A stretch of DNA of 64,000 nt from Octopus vulgaris. Lineage: Eukaryota. The notes below the pieces were generated by a model, which did no database searches, was not told the DNA's origin, and saw only the letters and a list, made by a program, of their open reading frames with translations. The position numbers were made by a program, and so were the translations under genes. The stretch lies in NCBI GenBank assembly GCA_951406725.2, contig OX597814.1, positions 106,826,001 through 106,890,000 on the forward strand, in the 5' to 3' direction. This document shows, in pieces, positions 5,407-49,400 of the stretch. Position 1 is the first letter of the stretch. Every line of letters starts with the position of its first letter.

Positions 5407-5516
5407 TAGTTATGTCATCTACTTTTTTCTTTTTTCCATTACAGTTTTGTGATAATCAACCCCCGAGATTAGCACCTTAGGCTGTAACCTTTCGAAATAC
5501 CAATATCTTCGTTCGT

Positions 5517-5680
5517 TATTTACGTTATTTACATTATTTACATTATTTACATTCGACGGATATTTGTCCTCATCTTGTTTGTTGTTTGTGTTAACAACAA
5601 ACAAGATGAGGACAAATATCCGTCGAATGTAAATAATGTAAAGAACGTACATAATTCCTCATCTCTTAGATATAGAACTC
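5517..5680 (+). mobile_element. 5'-truncated, inverted insertion of the HHR-SINE tail with a 13-bp TSD
   Basis: TSD TATCTTCGTTCGT at 5504-5516 and 5681-5693. Arms 5517-5586 (minus) and 5587-5680 (plus) match the tails at 20898-20990 and 47973-48067. Confidence 0.85.
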
Positions 5681-5811
5681 TATCTTCGTTCGTGTCTTCT
5701 ATTGTAGCTGTGCGACGACGAATAACTTGATCTAGTTCGCTTTTGTTTTTGTTGTTAGTTTCTTTGTTGTTTTTTTTAGCCCTGGGCTGTCCAAGACCTT
5801 CTATTCTATTT

Positions 5812-6025
5812 GGTGGCCAGCTGGCAGGATTGCTAACACGCCGGAGAAAATGCATGGCGGCATTTCGTTCGGCTTCACGTTCCAAATTCCTATTCTGCCG
5901 AGGTCGGCTTTGCCTTTCATCTTTTCGGCTCGATAAAATAAGTACCAGTTGAATACTGGGGTGGATGTAATCGATTTATGCCCTCCCACTAAATTCCTGG
6001 CCTTATGCCAAATTTTAAAACTCAA
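5812..6025 (+). mobile_element. tRNA-derived SINE, family B
   Basis: GGCCAGCTGGCAGG head and conserved GCCTTTCATCTTTTCGG..CGATAAAATAAGTACCAG core. Confidence 0.8.
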
Positions 6026-8939: not shown

Positions 8940-9170
8940 GTATATTTCTTTATTGCCCACAGGGGGCTAAACAAAGAGGGGACAAACAAGGACAGACAAA
9001 GGGATTAAGTCGATTACATCGACCCCAGTGCATAACTGGTACTTATTTAATCGACCCTGAAAGGATGAAAGGCAAAGTCGACCACGGCGGAATTCGAACT
9101 CAGAACGTAACGGCAGACGTAATACCGCTAATCATTTCGCCCGGTGTGCTAACGATTCTGCCAGCTCGCC
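8940..9170 (-). mobile_element. tRNA-derived SINE, family B (full length)
   Basis: Reverse match to 53638-53870. Confidence 0.9.
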
Positions 9171-10017: not shown

Positions 10018-10356
10018 ATCGTCCCCAGTACGTAACTGGTACTTAATTTATTGACCCTGGAAGGATGACAGGCAAAGTCGACCTCGGTGGAATTTGAACT
10101 CAGAACGTAAAGAGAGATGAAATAGCTATTTCTATTTCTTTACTACCCACAAGGGGCTAAACACAGAGAGGACAAACAAGGACAGACAAACGGATTAATT
10201 CGATTATATCGTAATTGGAACTTATTTAATCGACCCCGAAAGGATGAAAAGGCAAAGTCGACTTCAGCGGAATTTGAACTCAGAACGTAGCGGCAGATGA
10301 AATACCGCTAAGCATTTCGCCCGACTTGCTAACGTTTCTACCAACTCACCGCCTTA
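10018..10356 (-). mobile_element. Tandem SINE family B (two units)
   Basis: Core AAGGATGAAAGGCAAAGTCGAC repeated at about 10060 and 10240. Confidence 0.85.
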
Positions 10357-15461: not shown

Positions 15462-18400
15462 TCTCTTATGATAAAAGGCAGATTTTCTCTGCCTGTTCCC
15501 ATGTTTCTTTTTAATACAATTCTGCAATATAGAATTTCTTCAATTGGAATTTACCTATGATTTTTCTAAGTAGATTCGATTGGGTCATGGCATATAATTT
15601 TTTTTTCAATTTGACCCCCAATTAAGCAAAAATTCGAGAAAACTCAATATTTTACGATTTGCCTCTCTCATTTCAAGTGGTTTACTCCTGCTATTACCAC
15701 CACACTTTCTCCTACTTTCTCTTTGCAAGTGTGAAACTATTAAAGTGAAAGTATTATATAACAGGGATGAGCCATTAATAGCGGTCGTCCTTTTTGCTAG
15801 AGGAAGATCCGCTATGGTCTTATATGCTAAACCACTGGTTTTCAATTCATATTAATCAAATTAATGTTCAATTTTTCACCCTTATTATGTGTGTGTGTGT
15901 GTGTGTATTAGCAATTCGTGTAAAATTGCATCAATGACTTGAACTTGAATAAGTGGTTTCACATAAATGGGGATAAATTAAAAAGGTTTGTTGTTATTAT
16001 TATTACTGTTTGACTATTGTAATCACGTTTGTTGGTTCCTCGTCAGGGAAATGTTGTTGTGTTGCATTTGTTAAATAATTGTAAACCGTAACCCTCCCCC
16101 TTTCGGAGAAGGAGCTTTGGTTATTGTTTAAAAATTGAATTGTGTCCCTGTTTGGGGAAATTGACAATACTTTCATCGTCTTTACGGAAGCATTTTTGTT
16201 AAAATACCTTCGATAGAAGAAAGTCCAAAAATGAATTTCGCTGCAGCTGTACACTTCTATACAAGAGGGAGGACAAGATCCAATTGATCGAAATTGCAAG
16301 AGACGGGCCTACAATTCCAGTCTATTATATATTTTGAGTATTGTTATCACTAGCATTATCAAGATATAACTTTGTATTTTGTATTTTATGTGTAGATGTA
16401 TATATATAGATGTATATGTAATATGTACACATATATATACACATATATACATGCATAATATATCTACCCATACACACATACGCACACACACACACATACA
16501 TAGGGGCAGGTGTGGCTGTGTGGTAACAAACTACGTTCCAAACACGTACAGTCCTACTGTGTGGTGACTTGGCATGTGTCTTCTGCTGTAGCTTCAGACC
16601 AACAAAAGCCTTCTCAGTGGATTTTGTACATATATACAGGCATACATACATATATATATATACATGCATACGTACATATTCGGCATAAGCACTCTACCAC
16701 TACAACTAATAACTGTTTGGAACACTTTCAAACCTGCCTTACATTCGAACCGGAATCTCAAAAGCATTGTCCCCTTCAGCGCCAAGCTCAACTGCTCTAT
16801 CCTGACATGGAGGGTATCAGCAATGAAATCTATAACAAAACACTCATTGCTAAACTGGGTGGAAATGAATTGTCGACGTATGGCCTGCCACAAGCATTCA
16901 GGTCAGGGTCAAATAGCCTTCCCACTGCTGTCATTCGTGAAACAACCTACGACACTCAAGCGCTTTCAAAGTACATTGTTGAAAATGAGCCTAAATTACT
17001 TCCGGACCAGCTGCAGGCCTACATAACTATTCTTAATAGTGTACGCCAACGCGAGGGACGAATCTTCTTCCTCGATGCTCCTGGAGGGACAGGAAAAACT
17101 TTTATTACAAAGCTTCTCCTTGCAGAAGTTAGGTAGCATCAGGACATTGCAGTAGCTGTAGCCTCCTCTGGCATTGCAGCTACTTTGTTACCCGGTGGCA
17201 GGACAGCACACTCAACTTTTAAACTCCCTCTCAATTTAGCAGCATCCGAAATGTCTTCATGCAACATTAACAAAAGCTCACATCAGAGACAAGTACTTAA
17301 AATTAGTTATGTAATTGTCTGGGATGAGTGCACTATGGCTCACAAGGGAGCTCTGGAAGCATTAGATAGAGCCCTGAAAGACATCCGAGATTGTCAGGCT
17401 CCAATGGGAGGTGTAACGCTTCTGTTGTCAGGTGATTTCAGGCAAGCACTTCCTGTCATTCCGAAAGGCACTAGAGCTGATGAAGTTCAAGCATGCCTAA
17501 AGTCCTCTACCCTGTGGCATCATGTTACAATCTTTAATCTCACCACTAGCATGAGAGCTCAGCTACACGGCGACAAAATGTCCACAAAGTTTGCACAGGA
17601 CATTTTGACACTTGGTGAAGGCAAGATGCCTCTCGATGCTGCAGGACAAATGGAAGTGTGGTCATTTTCCTCTGTTGTTAATTCTGTAGATGACCTAAAA
17701 ACAAGGTCTTTCCCAACTTCACACAAAACTACCAAAATCACAATTGGCTGTGTGAAAGAGCAATATTAGCTCCAAAAAACGTCGCTGTTAACAAAATTAA
17801 TCAACAGCTATGCATTCTCTTCCCGGCACTATACACACTTACAAGTCTGTTGATACAATTCCAGATATAAATGAAGTTGTGAACTATCCTCCTGAATTTC
17901 TCAATTCACTGGAGCCCTCCTCGACTACCTCCACACATGTTACCACTTAAAGTTGGAACTCCTGTAATGCTACTCCGCAATCTGGAAAAAATGATATTAC
18001 ACGTTATCGAGGCGATCATTCTTTCTGGATGTGGAAAAGGTGATGACGTCTTTATTCCAAGATTTCCTCTTACTCCATCAGGAGCAGAAATTCTATTTAC
18101 ATTCAGAAAACTGAAATTCCCCCTTCGTGTCAGCTTTGCCATGTCCATTAACAAATCTCAGGGTCAAACCCTCTCTGTAGCTGGTCTTCTCTTGGAATAG
18201 CCCTGTTTCTCGCATAGGTACTGTATGTAGGCTACTCAAGAGTAGGAAACAAAAGAAACCTTTTTTTATATGCTCCACAAGGAAAAACAAGGAACATTGT
18301 TTACAACGAGGTGTTATAATCTCAACAGCCAGGAGGTATATACATGATCCCCTTTTTTTAACAAACTTCACGTACTTTCATGTATTTATATTAATATACA

Positions 18401-19781: not shown

Positions 19782-20099
19782 GTATATATATATATATATA
19801 CATACCACTGTATTTATACTGCATCGTTAAAAACCACTAAATACTCTTGTCTAGGCATGCGTATGTAAGTACTCAATAAATGAAGTATCACGTGTAAAGC
19901 TATAAAATCACCAACGCCTCAGGCTGCATGGCTGCAAATAGACACCATAAAATTTATCCTACTTTTCTTTATAGAAATGATCATCTACACTTTCCATCCT
20001 CGAGGTTTCACATCCAATGAGAAATCTAACATCTGCAGTGAGATCATTGAGTCTTGGAATTATTGCTTTGAAATAAGAGACTTATCTCTTACCATTAAA

Positions 20100-20312
20100 G
20101 GAGGCGAGCTGGCAGCATCTTTAGCACGCGGGGCAAAATACTTAGCGGCATCTCGTCCGTCTTTACATTCTGAGTTCAAATCCCACTGAGGTCGACTTTG
20201 CCTTCCATCCTTTTGGGGTCGATGAAATAAGTGCCAGTTACGCACTGGGGCCGATGGACTCGACTAGCCCCTTCCCCTCGAATTTCAGGCCTTATGCTTA
20301 TAGTAGAAAGGA
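20100..20312 (+). mobile_element. tRNA-derived SINE, family B
   Basis: GGCGAGCTGGCAG head plus family core. Confidence 0.85.
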
Positions 20313-20897
20313 TCCTCCCTCACCATCAATTTAACACAAATCATTTAGTGTTGTCTCCTCTGCTGACGGGTTCATAACTTTACACATATTATATATGAAC
20401 ACGCTTCTGTACAAAGTTACTCTTCCACTTGTCGCCAAAATGAGAGGGTCACCACAAAATCTTTCATATTGAGACTTTCTCTTAAAAAAATTTTTAATTT
20501 TTAATTTCACCTGAAGAAAATGGTCTGGTTTTTGCTTTGTTTTTTTTTTTCTAGTTTTTTTTTTTTTTTTTTTTTTTTTCATGATGCAATCAATAAAAAA
20601 CACGTCTGAAACAACGCTTGGCACCTTGAACGTTGTCGCAAATGAAGGCCAAGTTATAACATTCTCGCTCACTTGCTTTGTTTGTAGCAGTGTTTGGAAG
20701 TAAAGTGTATAGAGTGTGGTCGTCTCGAAAAACAAAAAGACCGGGTTTCAGCTGCGCAGGATCTCTTTGATTGTATCGAGGAAGACGAAAACTTTTTGGA
20801 AACGGTCATAACAGGTGACGAATCGTGGGCCTATGGCTATGACCCCGAAACCAAGGCTTGAAAGGAATCCTACTTGAAGAGAACAAGATTTCAAGAC

Positions 20898-21078
20898 AGT
20901 TCTATATTTAAGAGATGATGAATTATATATAGTATTTATATTATTTACATTTGGTGCATATTTGTCTTCATTTTGTTTGTTGTTAACACGACGTTTCGGC
21001 TGATATACCCTCCAGCCTTCATCAGGTGTTTTGAGGAAATTTCGATCCTGGGTTCTCATTCCTAAGGTATTTGTCGAT

Positions 21079-21170
<92 letters not shown>

Positions 21171-21289
21171 GGCATAGTGGTTAAGAGCGCAGGCTTCTAA
21201 CCTCAAGATTCCAAGTTCGATTCCAGGCAGTGATCTGAAGAAGAAGAAGAAGAAGAAGAAGAAGAAGAAAGAAGAAGAAGAAGAAGAAG

Positions 21290-21323
<34 letters not shown>

Positions 21324-21600
21324 AAGAAGAAGAAGAAGAAGAAGAAGAAGAAGAAGAAGAAGAAGAAGAAGAAGAAGAAGAAGAAGAAGAAGAAGAAGAA
21401 GAAGAAGAAGAAGAAGAAGAAGAACGAACGAACGAACGAACGAACGAACGAACGAAAAATACCTTAGGAACGTGAACCCAGGTTCGAAATTTCCCCCAAG
21501 ACACCTGATGAAGACTGGAGGGTATATCAACCGAAACGTTGTGGTAACAACAAACAAGATGAGGACAAATATCCGTCAAATGTAAATAATGTAAATAATG
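20898..21600. mobile_element. Head-to-head (inverted) insertion of the tRNA-headed HHR-SINE with a TSD
   Basis: TSD AAGATTTCAA(G/T)AC at 20885-20897 and 21601-21613; tRNA-like head at about 21169-21237; HHRs at 20985-21030 (minus) and 21500-21545 (plus). Confidence 0.85.
20985..21030 (-). ncRNA. Minimal type I HHR (Penelope type)
   Basis: AACAC-CTGATGA-A-GGCTG-gagggtatat-CAGCC-GAAACGTC-GTGTT, with perfect stems I and II. Confidence 0.8.
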
Positions 21601-22245
21601 AAGATTTCAATACGTCAAGAAAATCCAAGAGAATGCGACGAGAAAGTTCCTCGCTATCCCAAAAGAGGAAACTGCAAGAATGCGTCCATCAATGGAAATG
21701 ATGCTGGATAAATGATGTGACTTCAGAAAAGAATTACTTCAAAGGAGATTAAATGCCGAAGTGATATATGTTGTAATTTCCTTTTCATTGCACCAGTCCC
21801 GATACCAGACCTCGAACAGATTGCTCGGCTTCCGCACAGTTTCTCTCCAGTGAATTCTTCTCTCAAAATACTGCTCAGCAAGAGGCCAGAGTCCCATGCT
21901 GGGTGGGAGGACTTTCGATTCGATGCTATTTTTCAGGTTCAAACCCAGCCGACGTTGAATCTGACTTTTACCCTTCGGGGCCAATCCAATAAAAGCCGGT
22001 CACATCTGGCGATTCACTCAATTAATTTCGCTCGACCACCTTTCCTGGTCAGTTATTTAATTGCTGATTTGTTTCTCTGTGTACTTTCTCTGAAATATGT
22101 TAACTTTACAAAAGCACTTCATTAACATTAATTAAGAGATATAATTAAAGATTTTATGGCGCCTTAGATTCTCAAAAACTATCAAGTATACAATTATAAG
22201 CAGACACTACATTATGTGTGTGTGTGTGTGTGTGTATGTGTGTGT

Positions 22246-22749: not shown

Positions 22750-22920
22750 AGACGATTTGATCGACCTCAGTGTTTCACTGGTACTTAATTTATCGACCCC
22801 GAAAAAGGATAAAAGGCAAAGTTGATCTCGGTGGAATTTGAACTCAGAACGTAGCGGTAAACGAAATACCGCTAGGCCTTTCACCCGGCGCTCTAATGAT
22901 TCTAACAGCTCGCCGCCTTA
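22750..22920 (-). mobile_element. tRNA-derived SINE, family B (further fragments at about 23040-23100, 23455-23670 and 23695-23885)
   Basis: Family B head and core. Confidence 0.8.
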
Positions 22921-27010: not shown

Positions 27011-27449
27011 TATGTGTGTGTGTGTGTGTGCGTATGTGTGTGCATATATGCATAATGTATTTGCACATGCATACCCATACATATAATTACACACACTTCA
27101 CATAAATAGATACCGGCACACGTTTTCAGGATCATAACTACACACACACATACATATGCTCACTCATTACACACACATGTATAAATATTCAAGCATAAAC
27201 ATAGAAGCGGATACATATGCACACACAACACACATCAACACACAAAGAGATATCTACTCGTATTACACAGTAACACAAACCCGCGGATAAACTTACATGC
27301 AGAAATATTCTCAAACACACTCAACACAAATACATACTCACACACACACACACACACACATAACACATACACACACACACACTTAATCACACTTATTAAC
27401 ATATGTATAGATATGCCTGCAGTTATATATAACATTCATTCTATACCCC

Positions 27450-27556
<107 letters not shown>

Positions 27557-27899
27557 TGCATAAGTGGTTGCGCGGTAAGCAGCTTGCTTACCAACCACAT
27601 GGTTCCAGGTTCAGTCCCACTGCATGGCACATTGGGCAAGTATCGTTTACGTCCCCGTAACTTAGCGGTTTGGCAAAAGAGACTGATAGGCTTACAGAAG
27701 AATAAGTGATCCAGCATAGCCGCAGTCAGATGACTGAAACAGATAGAGAAGGAGAGAGATTCACAAGAGCGATACCAGAATACACACAGCGGTTGAAGGA
27801 CGCAGTTTCGGCACCCTTTTGCAATAATCACCAAAGCTTCGTAAAATATCCTTTTCTACTTAGGGCACAAAGCCCGAATTTTTTTTTCGGGGGGGGGGG

Positions 27900-28470
27900 G
27901 GCAGTCGATTATATCGACCCCAGTACGCAAATGGTACTTAATGTATCAACCCCGAAAGAATGAAAGGCAAAGTCGACCTCGGCGGAATTTGAACTTAGAG
28001 CGTAGAGACAGACGAAATACTGCTAGACATTTCACCCGGTGTGCTAATGTTTCTATTTCTTTACTACCCACAAGGGGCTAAACACAGAGAGGACAAACAA
28101 GGACAGACAAACGGATTAAGTCGATTATATCGACCCCAGTGCGTAACTGGTACTTATTTAATCGACCTCGAAAGGACTAAAGACAAAGTTGACCTCGGCG
28201 GAATTTGAACTCAGAACGTAGCGGCAGACGAAATACCTATTTCTTTAATACCCACAAGGGGCTAAACATAGAGGGGACAAACAAGGACAGACAAACGGAT
28301 TAAGTCGAGTTCATCGACCCTAGTGCGTAACTGGTACTTAATTTATCGACCCCGAAAGGATGAAAGGCAAAGTCGACCTCGGCAGAATTTGAACTCAGAA
28401 TGTGGCGGCAGACGAAATACCGCTAAGCATTTCACCCGGCGTGCTAACGTTTCTGCCAGCTCACCGCCTT
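27900..28470 (-). mobile_element. Tandem array of SINE family B (three core units)
   Basis: Roughly 180-200 bp unit repeated; full head at about 28400-28470. Confidence 0.9.
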
Positions 28471-28933
28471 AGCTTCGTAAAATATCACAAAATGATGGTG
28501 CCACATCATTTTGTGCCATGAAAATGATGGTATTCATAGAGACCTTCACGATGTGTGACGGTGTCGGTGTCGATTAAACTAAATATACTAAATGTGTTAG
28601 ATATTATTATATAGTTCCTCTATTATTCATAATGCTTTTCAGTAGGAGCTGACAAGACTTTCGGACCACCCTATGGAATACCATTTTATGAAGCAAATAA
28701 ATATTGGGAAAAGAAAAAAGAAAGGGAGGCGAAATTCAGAATCGTTCCACTGAGTTTTGTCATCCAAAATCTCCAAAGACCATCTATTTTTTCAGGCATT
28801 AGATTACAGCCATGTTGAGGCACCGCCTTGAACAATTTTTAGTCGAATGAACACACCAACAGTTTATCAGGGGTGTTGGGGGTCACCCACACAGACACAG
28901 ACACACACACATATATGTAGGTATATATGTAAG

Positions 28934-28972
<39 letters not shown>

Positions 28973-28986
28973 AGTGTATGTATATG

Positions 28987-29029
<43 letters not shown>

Positions 29030-29089
29030 AGTGTATGTATATGTATATACATATATATATATACACATATATATTATATATATATATAC

Positions 29090-29667
29090 AGGCATTATGA
29101 CCCGTCGTTGCCGGATCATAGTGCTAGTGCATGTATATATGTGTATATATATGTGTACATCTTATATATATATACATCTACACATAAAATACAAAATACA
29201 AAGTTATATCTTGATATCGCTAATTTTATTTTTAATTTATTCCCATTCATGTGAAACCACTTATTCAAGTTCAAGTTAGTGATGCAATTTTATACCAATT
29301 GCTATTTTTACTTTTGTTATGTTACGATTATATTATACTTTAGTTTGATTTTAATTATTACTTACTACATATAATTCAATTGTTATTATTATCTCTAATT
29401 TTTATTATTAAAGTGAAAGTATCTGACATAAAATAGAGAAATGTTTTTGTTTCACTTTTAACACGTAATACTGAATTAGTGGAGATATGATATTGCTATG
29501 GACTCGCCCTAGACAAGAAGTTGAACTTTTTTTGCCCATGAAACTACATGGACCCTAAGTAAGGCATGTGTAAAATTTGAATGAAATTGGTTGTGTAGTT
29601 CTCAAGTTTTAGGGAAACACACACACAGACAGACAGACACGCATTCTCAGTTTTATATAGAGAGAGA
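29090..29667. mobile_element. Non-autonomous Helitron fragments
   Basis: Hairpin plus CTAGT at about 29098-29128; segments shared with 15730-15970 and 16355-16460; minus-strand 5' end TCTCTCTATATAAAA near 29667. Confidence 0.5.
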
Positions 29668-29710
29668 TTAATATGCATATATATACATATATATATATAT
29701 GTGTATATGT

Positions 29711-29761
<51 letters not shown>

Positions 29762-29772
<11 letters not shown>

Positions 29773-30119
29773 GAATGTTTGAAAATGCAATTTTAAAAGG
29801 TGTTTATTCACCTGACCGGTTTCACTTTTTTAGAAAAAGATTGTCAAAAGTAAAATGTAAAAGAATGTATATATTTTCAATGAACTTTTTAATATCTTCT
29901 CAAGATTTTTCCTTTTAAACTGATTTAACAATTTTCTTATTATTATCAAAGAATGTATATATGTACTGTAATATTTTGTGACAACCAGTACTTAATACAA
30001 CGAAGTTTTTACAAAGCTTTTACATTTTACTTTTGACAATCTTTTTCTAAAAATGTGAAACCGGTCAAGTGAATAAACACCTTTTAAAATTGCATTTTCA
30101 AACCTTCTTTCATATATAT
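29762..30119. mobile_element. Fold-back element with ~100-bp arms, each holding a U3-A8 variant HHR-like motif
   Basis: Arms 29762-29863 and 30017-30119; motif TTACTT-TTGACAA-..-GAAACCGGTC-A(A/G)GTGA at 29808-29853 (minus) and 30027-30072 (plus). Confidence 0.65.
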
Positions 30120-30153
30120 TTCCACTCGTGCGGTATCTTACAACTTCACTTTG

Positions 30154-30231
<78 letters not shown>

Positions 30232-31043
30232 ATTTCGGGAAGGTCATTTTTTTTGCCAAATAAACACACGCACTATATATTCGTTCTTCACTCACCCAAG
30301 GTGTCTCGCGCAGTAGGAGTGAACCTGAAACCATGTGGTTGAGAAGCAACACATCCACGCATGCGCCTATATGCGTATGAAGTCATGGCTTATTATCAAT
30401 ACAACCACAAGACAAAGATTAATGATTATCCTCGTCTCTTACTTTCGTTCTATCAAGATTTAACCTGTTTCTTCATTTTATTCTAAGTATATTTAATTCC
30501 AAAAGTAAATCATGAGTAACCTCCCTTGATCCTATACATTTTATCCATCCATGACAGACCACTCTAACACTATTCCATACGTAACACCAGTCACTTAAGC
30601 ATGGACTACAGCTGGCCAAGTCATTGCGATCTCTCCGTGGACAGTGAAAGTGTGACCAGTGTAGTTAACACTTTTCTCTCCAGCCAACTTGACCTGATAA
30701 ATAAAGACTGAGTCCGAGTAATTATTGCCACTTCCGAACCTAAATTGCTTGACTAAATCATTTTCCCATCTTCATGGAGACTATCAAAGTGTCCTTTTCC
30801 GATTTCGCCAACTAAACGGGTGGTCCACCTATTGTCTGCAAGCCTTGCAACATGTCCAGCCCACCAGAAGTTATGCTTTCGCTACACTGCGATCACATCG
30901 TTCACATCGAATACATCGAACACTCCGCTCCGTTCTCGAAGTGTCTCATTTCGAATGAGCTCTCTTAATAATTACGTATTTCTTCCTCAAGGTCCAATAA
31001 GGTCACATGCACCTTCAGCTATCTAATTCCGACGAGTCGCTTA

Positions 31044-31081
<38 letters not shown>

Positions 31082-31086
<5 letters not shown>

Positions 31087-31281
31087 ATCCAAACAAGAAA
31101 ACACAGAAAAAACACTACAACGCGAGGACGTGGAATAAATATAGTATTATTGGACGCTCAGGAAAGAAGGAGGGTTTAACGTTTCGAGCGGAGCTCTTCG
31201 TCGGAAACATAGGAGAAGGAAAGATTCAGAGAAGGGAAGACAGAAGACAAAAATTGCCAACTGTACACATGAGGTCACATT
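31082..31281 (-). mobile_element. Second copy of repeat 565-770 with a minimal HHR-like motif at 31174-31208
   Basis: GTTT-CCGACGA-A-GAGC-tcc-GCTC-GAAACGTT-AAAC. Confidence 0.7.
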
Positions 31282-31327
31282 ATATATATAAAGGAATAAT
31301 TACTATGAACCATTGTGTAGAATATAA

Positions 31328-31516
31328 TGTATAAAGGATCGTGAGTAAGTGAATTAATATAGACTTACCTTGTATTCAATATTTCGGGATTATGACCCAA
31401 TTTTCAAGAAATATTGAATACAAGGTAAGTCTATATTAATTCACATATTTGTTTTCTTGTGATTTACCTTGCATTTACTTGGCATTGTTTTAGCCTTACC
31501 CACGATCCTTTATACA
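31328..31516. repeat. Fold-back with perfect 37-bp inner arms centred on an HHR-like motif
   Basis: 31349-31385 is the reverse complement of 31408-31444; outer arms 31328-31349 and about 31495-31516. Confidence 0.8.
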
Positions 31517-32640
31517 ATATATATATACGCGTTCATGGATATACAGAGATATGCATACAGTAGCTGTGTTGTTTATTCAATGATTTTATAATAATCCACA
31601 GTTAAGTTCGTACTTTGTTATTTCATTACTTGAATTTAGCGTCATTGAATGTTCATAATTGACTGCGTCGATCGTATTCCAAGCTAATGTTTAAACGTGT
31701 ATCATTCTAAATATCACTGACGTTGTGTTAATAAGACAACTTTAGAAATCTTTCGGTCTATTATTGCCTCATCAGTAAGGCACAGACTTCACTGTACTTA
31801 CTGAAGCTGTAATGATAGAATCACAGAGTAAAATGCTCAATAAAGTACATCGCTTGTTGTAGAAGACTAGGATTGTTTCGGGAATAAATTACTCAGAGTT
31901 CGGTGCCAATCGTAACGTTTAAGTCTCCAATCAAGATTTGAAATCGACCTTCACAAATTCGAAACGTCTATAATTGGTGAAATCATATCAGAAATTTCGA
32001 GAAGTCATAGTAGTTTCGCTGCATTCTTCCACTTACCAAAAGCCTCTTCTGGTTTGAGAAGTTTGATTAGAGGAAACAACAGCTAAGGTCAGAGAAAAGG
32101 GCAACGAGGCTACGTGGTTTTCGTTAAAAGCGAGGAACTTTTCCTTTCGCTTTTGTAATTAAAGAATATCAATGGCTAAACTTACACAACGATACTTCAA
32201 CTTATTCCTTATCTTTATTTGGCCCTCAGCGGCAAAATTTCTTGCCTGTGTTAATAATTAGCTGACAAGTCAAGTCATAGAGAGCAGCACCTGCCCAACA
32301 GCTTGGCAGCAATAGCGTGGTAAATATATTCAGATATTGCAGCGAATTGTTTGTGAATTCTTTGTGTTTGTCTTTTATATGAAGACAGAAGCTTAATCTG
32401 TTCGAGTGTAAACTTCACCAACGTCGATGTTAATGAGACAAAGCACGGCTCCGTGCGAAAGATTTAATATCGAGGGAAACTTGTTAGATTACTTGATGTT
32501 AGCTTCTCCTCGTTTCACAATCAGTGTTCTTTATCAAACATCTCCTGTTCTTAGATATATACATACACACAAACACGCACGCGCATATATGTGTGTATGT
32601 GTGTGTGTATGCATGTTGTGTATATGTGTGTGTATGTGTG

Positions 32641-32684
<44 letters not shown>

Positions 32685-32913
32685 CATATAAATATTTGTT
32701 TATTTTCGTATATATAAATATACATATATACATTCACACATATTTGTGTGTGTGTGTTTGTGTGTGTCTGCATGTGTGTCAGGTAAAGAAAATGCTTTAG
32801 GGTGAGATTGACATACGTAAAGCATTATCATAAATCAAGATTATTCTAAACGAACCACCTTTGTTTAACGTAAGATGTATGGAGAACGTGTGTGTGAATG
32901 TGTGTCTTGTGAC

Positions 32914-32944
<31 letters not shown>

Positions 32945-33760
32945 ATTTGTAGATGTGTGTGAATTTGTAGGTGTGTGTGTGTTTACAGGAAGAAAAGAGA
33001 GCTAGGGAGTTAGATACACATATATGAGTATAATATAGATACCTATCAAAGTTCTTTCTTGTTCTTGGTGTAGCTGAAGTCGTAATTACGTCTCTTGACG
33101 TTGTTGGATCAAACCCAGCTGAGATCAACTTTGCCTGTCGTCCTTTCGGAGTAAATCAAACAAAAACCCTGGAATATATAAGTACCAGTCACATGTTGAG
33201 GTCTCTCAACTCTTCTTTCCATCAAATTTGTGTCCGGCTGTCAAAGCTAAAAGTTATCATTTTTGTGATGATAAAATTAATTTCAATGTTACTAATTCTT
33301 GGAGCGTTGTTTCGTGTGAATGGGAAGGTGGGGGGGGGGGGTCGATCAATGTTTGCCGTGGTTTGTTGTAAAGAAATTTCTGGTTAGACGAGATTGGCAT
33401 CAAACAGGACTGATCTGCTGTTACGTACTTTGTACACCATTTTTGTTGTCATTCCGGATGTGTTGTCCTCGAATTTTTTAATATCTTGTTTTATTGTATG
33501 TTTGTGGCAAAGCTATTGCAATTACTCCGTGATATAAGAGCGAAGGATGTACTTGTATAACCAGTTTAACAGTTGGAGTCGTGAAGGTAACAACTTTTTA
33601 CAATGGAAATTTATAAAGGACATAGGACATTTATAGCTTGTTTGCAGGTGTGTAGAATTGTGGTTTATTGTTGATCTGGGGGGTTTTATTTCTATTTTAG
33701 AGTTTTAAAGGGTATTACTTGATGTACTTTTTAATTTGTATGCGTGCCTTTAATTCCTGT

Positions 33761-33859
<99 letters not shown>

Positions 33860-34006
33860 TGATTGATTGATTGATTAATTGATTGATAGAGAGACAGACA
33901 GACACAGAGACAGACAGACACAGAGACAGACAGGCACAGAGACAGACAGACATACAGAAATACAGACAGACATACAGACAGATAGACAGATAGATTGATA
34001 GATAGT

Positions 34007-34101
<95 letters not shown>

Positions 34102-34767
34102 ATAGATTTCGGCTGAGAAGCTGCATGCACCCCATCAGTCCACTAGACTGCCACTACCATATTTCTAACAGAAAGACAGACACACACACACAAACAGACA
34201 GACAGACAGACAGATACATACATACATACATACATACATACATACATGCAAGCATGCATGCATGCATACATACATACATACATACATACATACATACATA
34301 CATACATGCATACATGGATAGATAGACAGACAGACAGACAGACAGGTACGCACATACACACACACACACATACACATTTACATCTACATGTGTCTATATA
34401 CATATACTAACATACATACATATATACATACATGCATACGTTCATACATACATGCGTACACATACATTCATACGTATATATACATGCATACGTACATATG
34501 CACATACATACATACGCATGTATAAATACACATATATACATACAGACGTACATATATAAATACTCACATACATGTAAACATATACAAATAAAAATCAGAT
34601 GAAATGGAATTTATTTTGGCTCAAATAATTATATACATGCGTTCGACAATCCATGCATCCTTGCATGTATACACGCATCTATAAATCCATGAACGTATGC
34701 AATCTTACATGCATGGATTATATACATGTTTTCCTGTATATAAATATAGATTAATGTATATATACAT

Positions 34768-34830
<63 letters not shown>

Positions 34831-35643
34831 TGTATGTATGTATGTATGTATGCACACACATATAAGATCTTAAAATACTTTGCTATTTTGAATGCGTATG
34901 TATGTACGTATGACTATAATGGATTATAAGCACGTGCATGTGCTTGTATGTACATGCATGTGTGTGTATACGCCGGCAGCCATTTTGTGTGTTGCACCAA
35001 AGATTAACCACTGCATTTATGCCAAGATGTGTGCAACAACATGTTACACTTTAAACATGCATAATTCTCCTGGCAAAAACTATTGCAAATTCAATGCAAT
35101 AAACCGTTCCTACATGAAACTCCCATCAAGAGATTATTCTTTGAAATAATCTGTTAGAAGTGTGTGAGAGAGAAAGAGAGAGAAAGAGGGACAGGGACAG
35201 ACAGAGATTGTGTGTGTGTTTGTGGTTGTGTGTGTGTGTGTGTGTTTTCCTTGTTTATTTGCATCTCTTAAAGAAAAGACCTTAAAAAATCCCTTCAACC
35301 TCAATGTTCGTTGGTATGGAGGGGCTTTATAACCTTTTTTTACAAATGAATGCAAATGAGAGGGTTTTATTTAAGGGGAAAAAATAGCTACAACATGAAG
35401 GAAATTTAAAATACACACACACACGCTCACACACGCACGCGCGCGGTGCACATACTCGCATAACAATACACAGATACATCGATAAACCTTTCCACCGTTG
35501 CGACGACGCCGTACAAGAAGAGGGAGAAGAAGAAGAAGAAGAAGAAGAAGAAGAAGAAGAAGAAGAATTAAAGAAGAAGAATTAAAGAAGAAGAATTGAA
35601 GAAGAAGAATTGAAGAAGAATTGAAGAAGAAGAATTGAAGAAG

Positions 35644-35675
<32 letters not shown>

Positions 35676-35780
35676 GAAGAAGAAGAAGAAGAATTGAAGA
35701 AGAAGAAGAAGAAGAAGAAGAAGAAGAAGAAGAAGAGAAAGAAGAAGAAGAATTGAAGAAGAAGAAGAAAAGAAGAAAAA

Positions 35781-35811
<31 letters not shown>

Positions 35812-37361
35812 AAAAAGAAGAAGAAAAAGAAGAAGAAGAAGAAAAAGAAGAAGAATTGAAGAAGAATTGAAGAAGGAGAAGAAGAAGAATTGAAGAAGAA
35901 GAAGAAGAAGAAGAAGAAGAAGAAGAAGAAGAAGAAGAAGAAGAAGAAGAAGAAGAAGAAGAAGAAAAACAACAACAACAACAACAGCGACAGCGACAAC
36001 AACGGCTGGAACAGCATCAACAACAAGAGAAGCAAGTTAGAAGGAAGGAAAAAAGAAACGTGAGAGAGATTTATCATTACTTATTCAACAAACATCACTA
36101 AAAACAACCATTTCTTTCATTTCGTCATCAATTTTCTTCTTTTTTCATCGTTTTTATTAGTTTTTTTTTTCTTTTTATTGCTTGTTTTTTGTTTTATTTT
36201 CTTTGTTTCATTTCACTTCATTTCACTCCATTTCACTTTTATATCGCTTTATTTCGCTTAAATTCTAATGAATGGCTTTCTGCGTCGTCGCTGCTGCTGC
36301 TGCTGTTGTTGTTGTTGTGTTTGTGTTGTGTTTGTGTATATGTATATGTATGTGTATACATGTATGTGTATGAGTGTCTACACGTGTGCATATGCGTGTA
36401 TGAGTGTGAGCATAGATGTGTGTGTGTGTGTGTGTGTATATGTGTATATATGCGCGGGTATGAATGTGTGTATATGCGTGTGCATAAATGTGTGTATATA
36501 TGTGTATACTTGTGTCTATATATGTGTGTATGTGTGTGTATCTGTATGTATATCTGTGTGCATATATGTATATAAATATGAGTATAAATATATGTGTATA
36601 AATATATGTGTGTATATGCGTATATCTGTATGTATATCTGTGTATAAATATGTGTGTATAAATATGTGTGTATATGTGTGTATATATCTGTATGTATACA
36701 CCTGTGTATGAGTTTATGATTAACTGTGCGTGCATTAATGTGTGTGCGTGTGTGTCTATATATGTGTATATCTGTGTATGGGAGTCTGTGTGTATACATT
36801 ATGTATATGTGTGTGTGTATGTTTTATTTCCATCTTAATATTCTACGTTCGCCACATTTTAGCAGAAGTTGCAGTTGATGACATTTTATTCCATTTTATG
36901 AGAATTTCGGTAAATTTTGTTGTTTTTTTAATTTGTTTTGTGATGTTATTTTTTGTGTGATAGAATCGTTAAGGGATTTTTTATGGGTAAAGCGGTATCA
37001 TGTTGTTTTTCTTAGGGACCAAAATCCCTGTTAGCCTTAATACATGGAGATTATGTTAAAATAATCTATGGGGGTTAGTGATAGGGGGTATCATCACACA
37101 GGGATGAGGAGACAGCAGAGAGACGGACACACGGACACACAGGCACACAGGCAGGCAGAGCGCGCACGATTAAGAGACGACAGTGATGAAAGGGGGAAAG
37201 TGTGAGAGTATTATGAAGAAAAAGAGATTAATGATACAGAAGCGGTGAGTTTTTTGATATTTAAGACACTATGTATACAGGGTATCGCCAAAATCCACCC
37301 GCATTTCAAAGGTTGACAAAAGTTCCAAGAACTAACGCTCGACGCTCCGAGCCAAACTATA

Positions 37362-37754
37362 ATCTCTATATATATAAAGCTGAAGTTGTCTGTGTATGGC
37401 AGGTTTGGTAGCCTTCAACTAATACTATCTCCTCCGAGACCCTGCGGCGCAAGTTGACCAAAATTGACAGTATGATAGAAGAAGGTTAGCTCTCCCTTCC
37501 ATAGAAGAAAAAATTCAAATCGGACCATGTTAACACCAAAAATTATTTACATCAAAAAGGTGCTATTTTTCTATGAAAATCCCTATTTTTTACGGTTTTT
37601 TGACTGCTGTGTCGCCATTTTTTGGTGTATTTCAACCAGAAAAATGTTCACTTAAAGAGAATAACAAACTACATAATGCAGAATTTTTACTTTTCAAAAA
37701 TTCTAATTCTAAAGGGTCGAAACAAGCCTGAGCAACGCCGGGCGATACTACTAG
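37362..37754 (+). mobile_element. Non-autonomous Helitron (~390 bp)
   Basis: 5' TCTCTATATATATAAAGC; 3' hairpin CCTGAGCAACGCCGGG then CTAG|T; closely matches 41447-41849. Confidence 0.8.
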
Positions 37755-38419
37755 TAGTAAATAAATATAAAACGCTAAGACATATTAGCCACATAGAGAT
37801 ACCATTGCTGTCTACCTAGGATCAAAGGAGGAAGGGATCAAAGGTCCTTCCTTCCGAAAAATTGGCCTTGTTAGCTGGTCTTCCGGATTCTGTTGCGTAT
37901 ATATTCCACCCACCCACTTCCTGGGCGGGACGCTGGGCCGTCACAGGGTAACTCATTTTTTCTTTTTTTTTTTACTAGCTGAGTGGACTGAAGCAACATG
38001 GAATGAAGTGTTTTGTTATAGAACACAACGCATTGTCCGGCCCAGGAATCGAAACAGCAATATCATGATCATGAAAGCAACACCCTCTCAACACCCAGAA
38101 TGAATAAAGGCCTCCACTCCGCCTCCCTTTTTCGCTATCCACCTAACTTTACTAGTAAATATACATCAAGACAAAGAATGAAGCATTTTTCTGTTGCACC
38201 TTGTATAAAAGGGTAGGGAGATGATCACAAGAAGAAGGGAATTCTGAAAACAAGAGGAAGGTTGTCTTTCTTTGTATCATTCGACGTTAATTCTACAAGA
38301 ATCGGTAGAAAAGAAGAAATAAGACAAGTCAAGTTCTCAGTAAATTCTTGCAGATCAAAACAAACGAAGAATTAATTGCTAAACACTTGTTTTCAGTGAA
38401 CCGTCTTTAGATTTCGGAT

Positions 38420-38493
<74 letters not shown>

Positions 38494-38730
38494 GGTGGTG
38501 GTGGTGGTGGTGGTGGTGGTGGTAGTAGTAGTAGTAGTAACAATTGGGTCCTTTTAAAACCAACAAAATACAATTCACTAAAATATACTGTAGCGTGGCT
38601 GTGTGGTGAAAAGTTTGCTTTCTACCCAGATTGTTCTGGGTTCAGTCCCATTTTCTGGCACATTCGGCAAGTGTCTTCTACTAGAGTCCCAGACTGACCA
38701 ATATATACATATAAATATATATTGGTCAGC

Positions 38731-38800
<70 letters not shown>

Positions 38801-39220
38801 TTATTTATAAATATAATTAAGGAGAAAAGAAAACAAATTCAAAGGTCGATGCATATATTCATTCAATCCATATTAACGAAATTCTTCATGGTATACAATA
38901 TACATACTTATACACAAAAATTTATAAATATATAAAAATTCATAGACATATTAAAATTTATAAACACGTCAAAATTCATAAAATATAAATACATAAAAAT
39001 ATAAGTCCATAAATGTACTTGCAAAGTCTGAATGAAGAGGATGATAAAGCGGATGTAAAATGATTCATAAAGAGTTTGGGACATGAATAAAATCTATGTA
39101 TAAAATCTTACGGCCGTTTCGAAATATATATTTACTGTTTTACTCTTTATTCTTCTCTCTACTATTTAATTCCTTTATAAACTGTGATTCCCTGTCTAAA
39201 ACTTTCATACTTACTCACGT

Positions 39221-39298
39221 TGTCTCTGACGATGGAATACCCAGTGTATGGAGATGCTAACCTATCACTTGGGATATCCCAGAAATGGCTGCAAGGCA
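39221..39298 (+). ncRNA. Decayed type I HHR-like motif with a long stem II
   Basis: TGTCT-CTGACGA-[~50 nt hairpin]-GAAA-TGGCTG-CA-AGGCA; an inverted half-copy GAAACGGCCGTA-AGA lies at 39106-39120. Confidence 0.5.
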
Positions 39299-40509
39299 TC
39301 CAATAATTAATTAATTAACTAATTAATCAATTGGTTAATTCAAATTGATTCTAATTAAATATTCTAAATGGCTTCAGATACTCGTCCTGCCTTGGCTTTC
39401 CTTTTCCTTTTCCTTCTAATATATACCCGCTAACTCAGAAGCCTACTACAGATCCCTAGCTGCAGCCTCATGTGAACTTGGAACCTAACGGACGACCATA
39501 GCATGAGTGAGGGTGAATGCCGCCGCAAGTACAATTACAAGCAAGGACAGAAAAGTTCAGCAGAGGAGAATTAAACCCACCGGAAGGTGGCTGAATTGTT
39601 ACATGAATTAAATGTGAGTATACACCGCTGTATATGGTTTCTGTGTGATGAAGTGGATATTGTAAACAGTCTTTAAAGTTTCATATTTTTTTAAGTCGCC
39701 GTGGAAAATATAAGCAAAATATTCGGAAGAAGAACGGTAGACTGTACGGAAAGTTCTAGAACTAGTATCTGAAACGTCTTTCAATTAGCTTAAATCATTA
39801 AAAAGCAAGAAGCTAAAAAGAAAACATTTCAAACTTAAACTTGGAGTCATCTGTTTTTATTTATCCTGGATTATTTTGTTTGCAAATAATTATTTCTTTA
39901 ATAAATTCTCACAGGCACGTAGAGTTAAGCTCTTTGGCCAGAGATGGAAAGCAAAGCAGGAAAGTTGAAAATTTGTTTCACAGATTAGATTTCATCGATA
40001 ATTAGCTTTGATAATAATTAGCGTCGAATGAAGGCAGTTTTATCGTGACGTTTATACAAACTGTGATGCTGTCGAGGATATTATATAGTCATATTTTCAA
40101 AAGGGATTTACATTTAAGCCACTGAAGAACAGAGGTTCTATTATGACAGGACAAAAAAATTGGTAAAATAACAAACGAAGAAATATGGAAAGGAAATACT
40201 CTAAGAATGAATATTTACAGATCTCGGTTCTATATCGCGTATGTGTTAATATATGTAGCAGCATGACTTTATTTCTGAAAGTTGCATCCATGTTACGTCG
40301 CTCTTTAATTCAAGGACGGAATGGTAGGAGTGGGACAAAATCAGGAGAGAAAAATTAAAGACGAAAATCTATTGAACAAATGATTTATATTGTTTTATTA
40401 CATTGAAATTATCGACGTCGACGCCAAGATTATAAATGTACTAAAGTTAATACAAAAGCAATAATGACTATTATGATGATGATGACGAGAACGGCAACGA
40501 TAATTAATG

Positions 40510-40540
<31 letters not shown>

Positions 40541-40569
40541 CGATGATGATGATGATGATGATGATGATG

Positions 40570-40634
<65 letters not shown>

Positions 40635-41446
40635 TTAATTATGAAACTTCTAAGCAAGATACAGTTTTTTTTCTTATTTGCTTTGTGAGGTTTTAATTGT
40701 TTTATTTTTTTAATTTTTCGTTCCAGGATAAAAGATATTATCCATTGAAAGAGTAATCCAAGACTATTACCAAGAGAGGAAATTGCCTCAATTCGAAAGC
40801 AGCAGCAATCAAGTTTAAAATTGTCTTGCGTAACTTTTCTGTTCAGCCCTCACAGAATATGGGAAAATTTGATTGATTCTATAATTCTGTTAAGTAATCA
40901 TTTAATTAATAATTCACTTTGAAATATAATTAGCAGCGAGGTGGGTGGGGGGAGAAGCAGAGTTAAATGAATGAGACGCTTGTTGAAAGAAAGCTCAAAC
41001 GAGAGATTGCGTTTGTAGAGATTGGTGAGAAGGGATCAGAGAAAATTGATTTTATCAATCCCAGTTCAACCTTGTTCTTATCTCTTGTAACGTTGCGAAG
41101 TTTTTATTATAATCCTCTTTCTGAGCCTTCAAAGGAGAGCAGAACATAACTGGATTTAGCGCAGTTATTATATCTTTATCTCAGTTTGTTGGTTTAAATA
41201 AAGATGAGTTGAAAACAGTGCAGACGGGAGCGGTAAAAACCTTAAATTTCAATGTTAGACTAATCCCTCAACATACTGTATCATTCGCTGGAATTGGTAT
41301 CTCGACCGTCTCTTCATCCATCAGTTATAGTCGAAGAATATAAACAGAAATCCTGGCAATTTTTTCCGTTATCTGAAATATATTTTGTGATAAAGCAGGA
41401 ATACAAGCCTTGATTTGGTTTCCATGTACAATATGGCAAACGTCTT

Positions 41447-41849
41447 ATCTTTATATATAAAGCTAAAGTTGTCTGTGTGTGTGTGTGGCAGGTTTGGTAG
41501 CCTTCAACTAACACTATCTCCTCCGAGACCCTGCGGCGCAAGTTGATCAAAATTGACAGTATGATAGAAGAAGGTTAGCTCTCCCTTCCGTAGAAGAAAA
41601 AATTCAAATCGGACCATATTAAGACCAAAAATTGTTTACATCAAAAAGGTATTTTTTTACTATGAAAATCCCTATTTTTTACTATTTTTTGACTGCTGTG
41701 TCGCTATTTTTCGGTGTATTTCAACCAGAAAACTGTTCACTTAAAGAGAATAACAAGCTACATAATGCAAACTTTTTACTTTTAAAAAATTCCAATTCTA
41801 AAGGGTCGAAAAGAAAATAAACCCGAGCAACGCCGGGCTATACTGCTAG
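41447..41849 (+). mobile_element. Non-autonomous Helitron (same family as 37362-37754)
   Basis: TC start, CCCGAGCAACGCCGGG hairpin and CTAG|T end. Confidence 0.8.
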
Positions 41850-42693
41850 TTTTATATAAAAGCTGTAAAATTAGATTCTAAAAATTTTCATTAAAGACAA
41901 GCAATTTTCCCTTTCGAAAATTTTATAACATTTATTTCTTATCAAACAAGAGTAAAATGTTAATTAAACCAGTCTTAAAATGTAAGAACTAACGAAAAAT
42001 AACTGTAGTATTTTACCCATTAGATTACGGATATGGCATTGGTTTCTATATTCGGTGTTCGATCCGCTGAGCTGCCTATTTATAGTATTATATGATGTCG
42101 TTGGCTGCGTATCCCATAGACACGTGTACCAATACTCTAATAACCTGTGCGTCTATGTGTATTGTGAGGTATGTACGAGAGATAGATTCAAACACGGTTC
42201 GGTCTTATTAGTACCTCATCAGCGAAGAATATAGTCCACCACAATGAAATAGAAATTAATTAAATATACACGAATGTACACTGGCTGTAATAGAAACTAG
42301 AATAATTTAAAGAGAGAGAATTCCTTGAAGGAAACCGTCGAGAGTAGGGAAGAGGGATGGAATGCTTCAAATTACGAAACTCAAATACATTAATTTTTTC
42401 TAATCACAGTAATCTGCATATTTATCTATGTAGGATTAAATGAATGAGAGTTAAATCATTTATCGGAGGCGATCAAATGTTTTCGTAATCCCAAAGAAAA
42501 TTATTTGCTGCGCAGATAGAAAGACAAATTATATTAATTTAATCACTGATGTAATTTACATAACAGATACAGTAAACTTCTCTAACACCTGGCATTTGAT
42601 GTGTTTTTAATGTCGGTATGATTTCCACATGCAGAGACATACAGACATAAATACATGCATATACACACACACACATACTACATACATGTGTGT

Positions 42694-42876: not shown

Positions 42877-43168
<292 letters not shown>

Positions 43169-47029: not shown

Positions 47030-47970
47030 ATAAGCCCTAATCTTTACATTCTAATGGTTCCTTTTCTTTCTTTGCAGATTATACCAAAGTTCTTAAATTT
47101 GTATCGATTTGACCCTTTAAAATGAGATTAGATCAGATACAGCATGCTTTATGAATTAAAAGGAGCTCTTCCGCAATGGAAGAAATAATCGTTCTGTCTA
47201 TGGAAATGAAACTCTAAGTGTCCAGACATGCTAATGATGATTTGGCCAGCTTCGTCCGGGAATTTTTTTTCTCACAGTTACCCTTTCATCTAGATGACCA
47301 AGTTCTATCAATATTGAACTTCTGAAAGCAGTTGAGAAAAAGTCAAAGCAAGCTACACGGGAATTAGCAAAACAGTTCAATTCGATTAATTTTGCGATCA
47401 GAAAAGTCCAAAAAATAGAAAATGTCTAAACCTGGTCAGTGAGTTCTTCATCATTTGACTGCTTCTCAGTTTAATAAAAGAATAATGATGTTCTCTGTTT
47501 ATCATGAAACGGTAGACTTGTTATCGATCCTTTCCTGGGCAGAATCATCATAATTAGGGAAAAACGGATTTTCTATAATCATACCTTCCGGAAACGATTA
47601 TGGTTGGTAACTAATAGAAAAGGAAAGTGTACCCCGCAAGTCAGGAATTACACCCGTAAAAGTTATGCTCTGCATTTGGTGAGATATGAAGAGTACCGTG
47701 TATCATAAATTCTTAAACCAAAGCGAAACAATTAATGCGGAGAATTAGTGTGGTCAATAAGTAGCATTGAAGAAATAGGTCCACACAAAGCGCCCATCAG
47801 GGGTCAACCGTAAGAGTATCATTATACTCTTAAACATTAATGAGAGACTCCAAATTGCCCAAGTCACTCAGCAAAAGATTAAGGCACTAAATATGGAAGT
47901 TTTGTTTCGTCTTCCATAATCTCCTGGCCTTGTTCCATCTGACTTTCATATTTTCAGATAATTGCAACAT
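47030..47970 (+). pseudogene. Decayed mariner transposase
   Basis: Degenerate WVPH, KVMLCIW and P*SPGLVPSDFHIFR (YSPDLAPSD) motifs with many stops. Confidence 0.75.
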
Positions 47971-47972
47971 TA

Positions 47973-48393
<421 letters not shown>

Positions 48394-48449
48394 GGTTACT
48401 AACCCAGCATTTTCCATAAATAGATTATTACATATCAGACAGTAAAGTC

Positions 48450-49400
48450 ATATTTTACTCAGCCTCCACCTGTAGTTCATCAGCGGCACACATTACAAAC
48501 TTTTTAGTTGTGGTGGCATTGGACCGCTTCAAGCTCCACTGTTAGTTTGGCACTGTGTGGTGACCACAGCTGAGAGCAGTAGTCCAGCCAGCTGACAATA
48601 AGGGTCAGCATAATTCTTGGTCTACTGTCTTGAAGGGCCTTAGTATCCATCCTGCCAATTATTTGCGCCTTGCTGTCATCTTGGTGATGTGCATAAGAAA
48701 TGATGCACCATTGCACGTACTGATTCCCAAGTCTTTCACTGCTTGTGACTGAGATTACAGTGCCTTTGGGTCATGTAGATGCAGGCTGTTGTGTATTCGT
48801 GAGTTGATAGCGCAGTGCTTGAAACTTTCCAGCATTAAACGGCATGTTATTTACTTCAGTCCATTTGTAAATATTGAACAAGAAAGTTCCCTGGGGGATA
48901 TATCACATCAGAATGGTGAAGCGGCTGTTTCAAAATCCAGTCATAGTGCTGTAAGAGACAAGTGAGGCAGCTTCCTCCTGAACAGAAGCCATGCTGCGTA
49001 TTGTTCAGTAAGTCATTTTCTTCTAGGAATATTATCAGTTTCATTCTGGTGATTCGTTCCGTGGTTTTATTCGTGTGTGAAGTCAGAGAGATTGGCACTT
49101 TTGTGGAAAGGGCATGTAATTACTTCTTTTAGCTTCTTAGGAAGTTTGACACTTGTAAGGAAACTCTGGAAGTGTATCTGAAATGGTTTCACTAAAGCCT
49201 GCTCCCATAGCTTAAGGAGAATGTGTGGGAAGCCATCGGGACCAGTTTCTGAGCTTAAGTTCATTCGTTACATCTGCATTCTCATTGTCGATGTAATCGA
49301 CGGCTGCAGTCTACAGAGCTGAAATGTTAAAGAATCCGGCGGTTTTTTTCTCTCTGCATGTGTTCCGGGAGGTGGTGGGAGGGTAGCTGAAGATACTCTT
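48450..49400 (-). pseudogene. CR1/L2-group LINE RT fragments
   Basis: GPDGFPHILLK, QHGF..GSCLT.LL and LDYCSQLWSPH peptides. Confidence 0.8.

Follow-up and report, generated by a model that had tools for sequence, protein, structure and literature searches.

A 190-bp feature at 5504-5693 of the window (the whole stretch of Octopus vulgaris DNA that was analysed, 64,000 nucleotides of contig OX597814.1) consists of two 3' end-pieces of an abundant octopus repeat, placed head to head and enclosed in a 13-bp target duplication (Table 1). The 13-mer TATCTTCGTTCGT is found at 5504-5516 and at 5681-5693 and at no third site on either strand of the whole window, the chance of a given 13-mer per site being about p = 2e-8 as calculated from composition. 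Positions 5517-5586 are antisense to the element, and from 5587 on the sequence is TGTGTTAACAAC. In the alignment with a full copy of the repeat (c48, minus strand) the sense arm aligned from 48069 and the antisense arm begins at 48062, the cut of a predicted hammerhead being at 48068/48067; this places the start of the sense arm 0-2 nt 5' of the predicted cut and that of the antisense arm 5 nt beyond it. A sequence-only reading of this DNA had described a 13-bp duplication around the arms, an antisense arm at 5517-5586 joined to a sense arm, and a sense-arm start within about 2 nt of the cut; the duplication proved to be an exact pair absent elsewhere in the window, and the alignment bears out both the orientation and extent of the arms and the distance to the cut. 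The feature is a real head-to-head insertion.

Both arms carry the same 3' sequence, which makes a 50-bp perfect inverted repeat with a 6-nt spacer, and the antisense arm ends 27-30 nt short of the 3' end of the sense arm. The arms are unlike at one 9-bp unit and at two substitutions; extra 9-bp units and one of the two substitutions are common across the family, as seen in the contigs of four runs. Two minority variants common to both arms, one at 5% or less and the other at 7-18% of contig depth, point to a common origin in one source gene or one molecule, or to sequence conversion between the arms at a later time. At the junction GTGTT is preceded by two T's that agree with the uncut sequence on the 5' side of the cut, as in an uncleaved RNA; a cleaved RNA would be without those bases. 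One of the two T's is common to the antisense arm, and the second could be a non-templated addition.

The repeat family in the window

BLAST within the window gives five segments of the repeat body, which belong to three insertions. The non-inverted copy c48 consists of a tRNA-like head, about 165 nt of trinucleotide repeats and a body of about 190 nt; its flanks hold a probable 7-bp duplication (48405-48411 and 47965-47971, differing at one base), seen by eye and missed by an exact-match search. The second inverted insertion, c21, has a tail of about 34 nt and junctions far from the predicted cut, and its tail-less arm holds a head that is absent from the tailed arm, so that c21 needs two cDNAs. 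The target duplications of the window insertions are 13, 10 and probably 7 bp long. Heads are joined to a microsatellite and a body in both window copies that have them and are 88% identical to each other, and heads and bodies stay 88-93% alike between copies despite the differences in the internal microsatellite motifs (AAG/AACG at 21250-21455, AAT/AAC at 21080-21169, AAT/GAT/AAC at 48158-48325). The head presumably contains an A-box and B-box-like motifs, as judged by eye. The c21 head (21175-21242) scores 20 bits with the Rfam tRNA model (E 0.11, gathering score 29), the c48 head has no Rfam tRNA match, and ARAGORN finds no tRNA; a tRNA origin of the head has modest support from its sequence.

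A 229-nt stretch of the body aligned with 27,394-42,570 contigs per run in four runs from three organisms, and 133-229 contigs per run continue 5' into the microsatellite. The family is short, non-coding, dispersed, high in copy number and flanked by target duplications, as tRNA-derived SINEs are. It is a roughly 430-bp SINE with a tRNA-like head that bears the predicted hammerhead and Penelope-type ends and has at least thousands of copies; Pol III would transcribe it from its tRNA-like head. Open frames overlapping the 433-bp unit are microsatellite read-through only, and the c48 unit is not an autonomous Penelope-like element because 433 bp are too short for an RT and GIY-YIG ORF. The family lacks the poly(A) or simple-repeat tail and the single 3' end of a LINE-mobilised SINE: the ends pass into heterogeneous flank and form two clusters, and the microsatellite is internal. 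A 23-nt exact pattern of the family had no match in metagenome, viral or prokaryote collections. Protein matches to the element were two proteins merely containing element sequence, one of them an Octopus sinensis gene model, with no RT domain; a further protein search gave no match. The O. sinensis gene model, for a cysteine-rich membrane protein, opens with about 35 residues translated from the SINE repeat, which is either exonisation or an annotation error.

The window is rich in microsatellites. It also holds a second abundant short repeat with a unit of roughly 186 bp, often in partial tandem, which we take to resemble a tRNA-derived SINE with a conserved central domain; this tandem family is unrelated to the hammerhead SINE. 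The c48 copy sits where a decayed LINE reverse-transcriptase remnant ends (48410-49200, minus strand), a remnant that is presumably CR1/L2-like according to motifs in its translation. Broken PIF1-like helicase frames at 16504-18200 on the plus strand (Pfam PIF1, E 1.4e-50) are probably a Helitron remnant, a Mariner transposase HTH remnant is found at 50439-50822 on the minus strand (Pfam HTH_48, E 5.2e-20), and a long near-perfect inverted repeat at 42882-43006 is MITE-like.

Table 1 Positions of the insertions and sequence features described in the text
Feature	Position	Strand	Remarks
Left target-site duplication, 13 bp	5504..5516	+	identical to 5681-5693; two occurrences in window
Antisense arm, from 5 nt after predicted cut to proximal tail-less 3' end, plus one 9-bp unit	5517..5586	-	matches 48062 to about 48002
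Sense arm, from 0-2 nt before predicted cut to distal 3' end	5586/5588..5680	+	gapless alignment to 48069-47972
Palindrome spacer, 6 nt (first sense-arm bases), at head-to-head junction	5587..5592	+	50-bp perfect arms around spacer
Tail, sense arm only	5654..5680	+	27 nt; 30 nt counting three bases shared with duplication
Right target-site duplication	5681..5693	+	equals left copy
Second head-to-head insertion (c21)	20885..21610	.	10-bp duplication at 20885-20894 and 21601-21610
c21 tail-bearing arm, 5'-truncated in microsatellite, runs to distal site	20895..21169	-	body 88% identical to other arm
c21 tail-less arm, nearly full length from tRNA-like head, stops at proximal site	21170..21600	+	end corresponds to c48 position 48008
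Full-length non-inverted copy (c48), 433 bp: tRNA-like head, microsatellite, hammerhead body (predicted), tail	47972..48404	-	BLAST, alignment
Micro-inverted repeat, 5 bp, 4-nt loop, straddling predicted cut	48057..48070	-	one of three 5-bp stems in 429 nt scanned
Predicted minimal type I hammerhead	48063..48108	-	stem I 5 bp, core 48103-48097, one unpaired base, stem II 6 bp, palindromic ACGU stem III
tRNA-like head of c48	48326..48404	-	88% identity over 68 nt to head at 21175-21242
Copies of the roughly 186-bp repeat	27903-28470, 51935-52348, 53636-53871, 8943-9170, 10018-10356, 20098-20265, 22750-22920, 5819-5978		

Penelope-type ends and a predicted hammerhead

The arms of each inverted insertion have different 3' limits: one reaches the distal 3' end, the other halts 27-34 nt before it. 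An inverted 5'-truncated copy stands beside a sense copy in two of the three insertions of the window. Two sharp 3'-end clusters about 30 nt apart appear in all four runs. The strongest 3' loose ends, at 47972, 47978, 48010 and 48015, are among the best six of each run and together hold about a quarter of the partly aligned contigs (786/3,072, 770/3,024, 852/3,100 and 717/2,770), and the consensus letters of the loose ends suggest true 3' ends near 47972-47974 and 48001-48008. The 3' region 47990-48051 (minus strand) folds to a stem with a z of -3.0, the AT-rich loop of which holds the proximal 3' end, similar to the stem-loop where the anole enzyme initiates. Penelope-like elements are described as typically having a truncated, inverted copy next to them and a tail of 30-40 bp at one end (PMC8557442, PMC2377424). 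The Poseidon enzyme of the anole, as presented in PMC11167929, cuts and extends both strands in vitro and initiates at two internal sites, which delimit the tail; it assists cleavage and is predicted to be a dimer. The same source describes uncleaved RNA as the one mainly used, with no RNA-seq ends at the cut, and cleavage as not needed for insertion. As two protein searches in two frames, both weak tests, found no autonomous Penelope-like partner, it is the end geometry and the hammerhead type that point to a Penelope-like enzyme, and the family was likely mobilised by a Penelope-like retroelement.

The predicted hammerhead has a stem II closed by a G-C pair and is without loop III. All three copies extending as far as the core have the core boxes and a NUH triplet, which is GUU in two of them and GUC in the third; the full minimal type I traits, with helices of 5 bp and 6 bp, are found in two of the three copies, the plus arm of c21 being decayed, and unconstrained folding gave a hammerhead-like fold in one of the three. 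Rfam returned no match of any kind at the gathering score and no hammerhead among the best 150 of 362 weak rows, and local scans gave nothing apart from the weak tRNA match; the canonical hammerhead pattern has a single, unrelated match, which is chance level. Among the best 40 of 125 variant rows there is no change of the cleavage base, which suggests that most copies are GUU. GUU is a weaker triplet than GUC for hammerhead cleavage. At the 1% setting a single indel is listed, the loss of 3 nt at 48066-48068, exactly at the predicted cut; per run, 34-60 contigs carry it, which amounts to about 1.3-1.4% of depth in one pair of runs and 0.1% in the other pair. It may be a subfamily variant, slippage, or a cut-and-rejoin scar. 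According to PMC4209133, metazoan Penelope-like elements bear minimal type I hammerheads with the traits seen here, such hammerheads are thought to act as dimers, and single ones showed no cleavage in vitro. The motif and its cut position at 48068/48067 had been proposed from the letters of the DNA and agree in their features with that description; both are sound as predictions.

Origin of the junction

The chance that one of two arms falls within 2 nt of the cut is 2-5%, and for both arms to lie within 7-8 nt at the cut under independent uniform truncation p is 0.0003-0.002. The sequence-only reading saw in this position the integration of a reverse-transcribed cleavage product. The junction does lie at the cut; that a cut RNA was integrated is possible, but we do not favour it, and the argument is weakened by a 5-bp micro-inverted repeat that yields the junction with a 4-nt slip and by c21, whose junctions are elsewhere. 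Four shorter overlapping registers occur at the same place as the micro-inverted repeat, and a fold-back at this micro-palindrome gives the real junction except for one 4-nt duplication.

A sharp peak of breakpoints at the cut had been put forward as support for cleavage, and the contigs of the four runs give a partial answer: there is no dominant peak at the cut, and a minor one is still compatible. No near-cut position is among the best six loose ends of any run, each such position holding fewer than 103, 86, 58 and 63 contigs (1.9-3.4% of those partly aligned); as the remaining 1,156 loose-end rows average about 7 contigs, a cut-site peak reaching roughly 8-15 times background would still fit. 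Inverted junctions would show as joints, and the best 15 of 116 joints include three between opposite strands (48015-48081, 48054-48124 and 48082-48157), none of them at the cut. In two runs the contig depth of the 48015-48081 joint is 1,045 and 748, much more than a single copy would give, and the joint seems to be amplified as part of a larger repeat. Contig depth, a crude measure with one bin straddling the cut, has ratios of 1.20, 0.91, 0.91 and 0.93 just 5' versus just 3' of the cut in the four runs; in a wider comparison the ratios are 1.04, 0.94, 0.82 and 0.87, lower 5' in three of the four, an effect that ordinary 5' truncation would also give. A rough posterior of a ribozyme origin, calculated from assumed inputs, is 0.07-0.77 across the priors tried and 0.19 at the central choice. 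Ribozyme cutting is not the main route for the family, and the junction likely arose without it.

We propose, with moderate confidence, that two cDNAs were primed by a Penelope-like enzyme, one from each strand of the target and both on uncut RNA, and then joined at the micro-palindrome straddling the cut. The target would have received staggered nicks 13 nt apart; reverse transcription would have begun at internal positions of the RNA, the distal site serving one strand and the proximal site the other, such internal starts being modelled on the in vitro result with anole Poseidon; cDNA synthesis would have passed through the ribozyme core, and the cDNAs would have annealed at the 5-bp inverted repeat with a 4-nt slip. 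By analogy with c21 we infer the same two-cDNA route for the 5504-5693 insertion. Because the two arm ends lie no more than 7 nt apart at the cut, which is improbable under independent uniform truncation, the model needs the microhomology step. It is supported by the overlapping arms, the tail on one arm only, the two 3'-end clusters and the same build in c21; counted against it are the failure of the protein searches to yield an autonomous Penelope-like partner, the two shared minority variants, which fit one template as well, the slightly lower depth 5' of the cut in three of the four runs, and the 3-nt deletion at the cut.

That the insertion is instead a fossil of ribozyme activity, one RNA, or two RNAs acting as a hammerhead dimer, having been cut at 48068/48067, with reverse transcription running off the cut end, addition of one non-templated base, loss of 5 nt from the second arm and joining of the ends, appears unlikely to us. 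The closeness of both arms to the cut, with a 2-5% chance for one of the two to fall within 2 nt, the deletion variant and the lower depth 5' of the cut in the wide comparison speak for it, as do the features shared with minimal hammerheads thought to act as dimers (PMC4209133) and the predicted dimeric anole enzyme described as assisting cleavage (PMC11167929). However, it concerns a single copy noticed after the fact, its two T's ahead of the cut agree with uncleaved RNA, the micro-palindrome offers a ribozyme-free route, there is neither a dominant peak among the best loose ends listed nor a depth step at the cut, and c21 breaks elsewhere; moreover, cleavage was unneeded for insertion in the one Penelope-like element tested according to PMC11167929, single minimal hammerheads were uncleaved in the assays of PMC4209133, and most copies seem to be GUU.

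A single cDNA might also have folded at the micro-palindrome and copied itself, the hairpin being resolved at the tail boundary. Such a snap-back fits the 50-bp perfect arms with their two shared minority variants, and 5' junctions of this kind are documented for R2 insertions in PMC11371274; however, the antisense arm halts at the family-wide proximal 3' end, for which a self-copy has no evident reason, the arms are unlike at the 9-bp unit and the two substitutions, and c21 cannot arise in this manner. We consider this course improbable. A fold-back artefact of the assembly or the library, or twin priming of the L1 type, would be very surprising. Short palindromes can arise as library chimeras and the locus is known from assembly sequence alone, but the exact 13-bp duplication, the unique non-inverted flanks and the unequal arms do not follow from a fold-back read. 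L1 twin priming inverts an upstream piece that does not overlap the sense piece, whereas at 5504-5693 the arms overlap over 50 identical bases; since both arms are the same sequence and the inverted piece is not from upstream, an inversion of this type is ruled out.

Comparison with known elements

The insertion architecture and the ribozyme type are already known. Insertions of Penelope/Poseidon, Neptune, Nematis and Naiad are described as having, like those in octopus, an inverted 5'-truncated copy, a tail of about 30 nt at one end and two 3' ends (PMC8557442, PMC2377424, PMC11167929), and endonuclease-positive Penelope-like elements, as far as these descriptions extend, similarly carry a hammerhead about 60-95 nt upstream of the 3' ends. 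Unlike Penelope-like elements, the octopus unit has neither an RT nor a GIY-YIG frame and starts with a tRNA-like head and a microsatellite, and no head-to-tail partial tandem is found among the three window insertions. The minimal type I hammerheads described by Cervera and de la Pena in 2014 (PMC4209133) have the same core boxes, 5-bp helix I, extra base before helix II, G10.1-C11.1 pair and palindromic 15.2-16.2 without loop III; helix II is 6 bp here versus 7-8 bp in the Schistosoma families described there. The role of the minimal hammerhead and the origin of the inverted ends and tails in Penelope-like elements are treated as open questions (PMC8557442, PMC7761336, PMC11167929).

We think it quite probable that the family is a Penelope-mobilised tRNA SINE that captured a Penelope terminal repeat. 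A variant of this reading, in which a SINE with a tRNA promoter and a captured Penelope terminal repeat left a minority of insertions, 5504-5693 among them, from RNAs cut by dimeric hammerheads within a complex of two RNAs, with both cDNAs running off at the cut, seems to us a poor prospect; if true, such insertions would document in the genome that minimal hammerheads cleave in vivo. Ohshima and Okada reportedly described three tRNA-derived SINEs of octopus in 1994, and the present family may be one of these or may be catalogued in Repbase or Dfam. In the literature searched, which lay outside Repbase, Dfam and subscription papers, we found neither an octopus SINE linked to a hammerhead nor a dispersed tRNA-headed SINE with a Penelope-type tail and inversions. 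The single copy flagged at 5504-5693 proves little alone and the family is the more interesting object: abundant, short and with clean target duplications, it offers natural insertions by the thousand for counts of 5' breakpoints, tail use and duplication length.

Precedents for the family are the Schistosoma alpha elements and the animal retrozymes. The SINE-like alpha elements of Schistosoma are likewise short non-coding retroposons with a Pol III promoter and a hammerhead (PMC6765202), but are described as mostly tandem, with canonical hammerheads (PMC4209133), whereas the octopus family is dispersed and has a minimal hammerhead (as predicted), a Penelope-type tail and inversions. Animal non-LTR retrozymes are also non-coding, contain a type I hammerhead and have been proposed to be non-autonomous Penelope derivatives (10.64898/2026.07.22.740005; PMC7761336). 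They are defined by tandem units, and the text of these sources mentions no tRNA head; the octopus insertions are not tandem, head-to-tail hammerhead units being found in none of the three window insertions. If a tRNA-headed SINE does use a Penelope enzyme, it would be a type of partner that is absent from the literature searched here.
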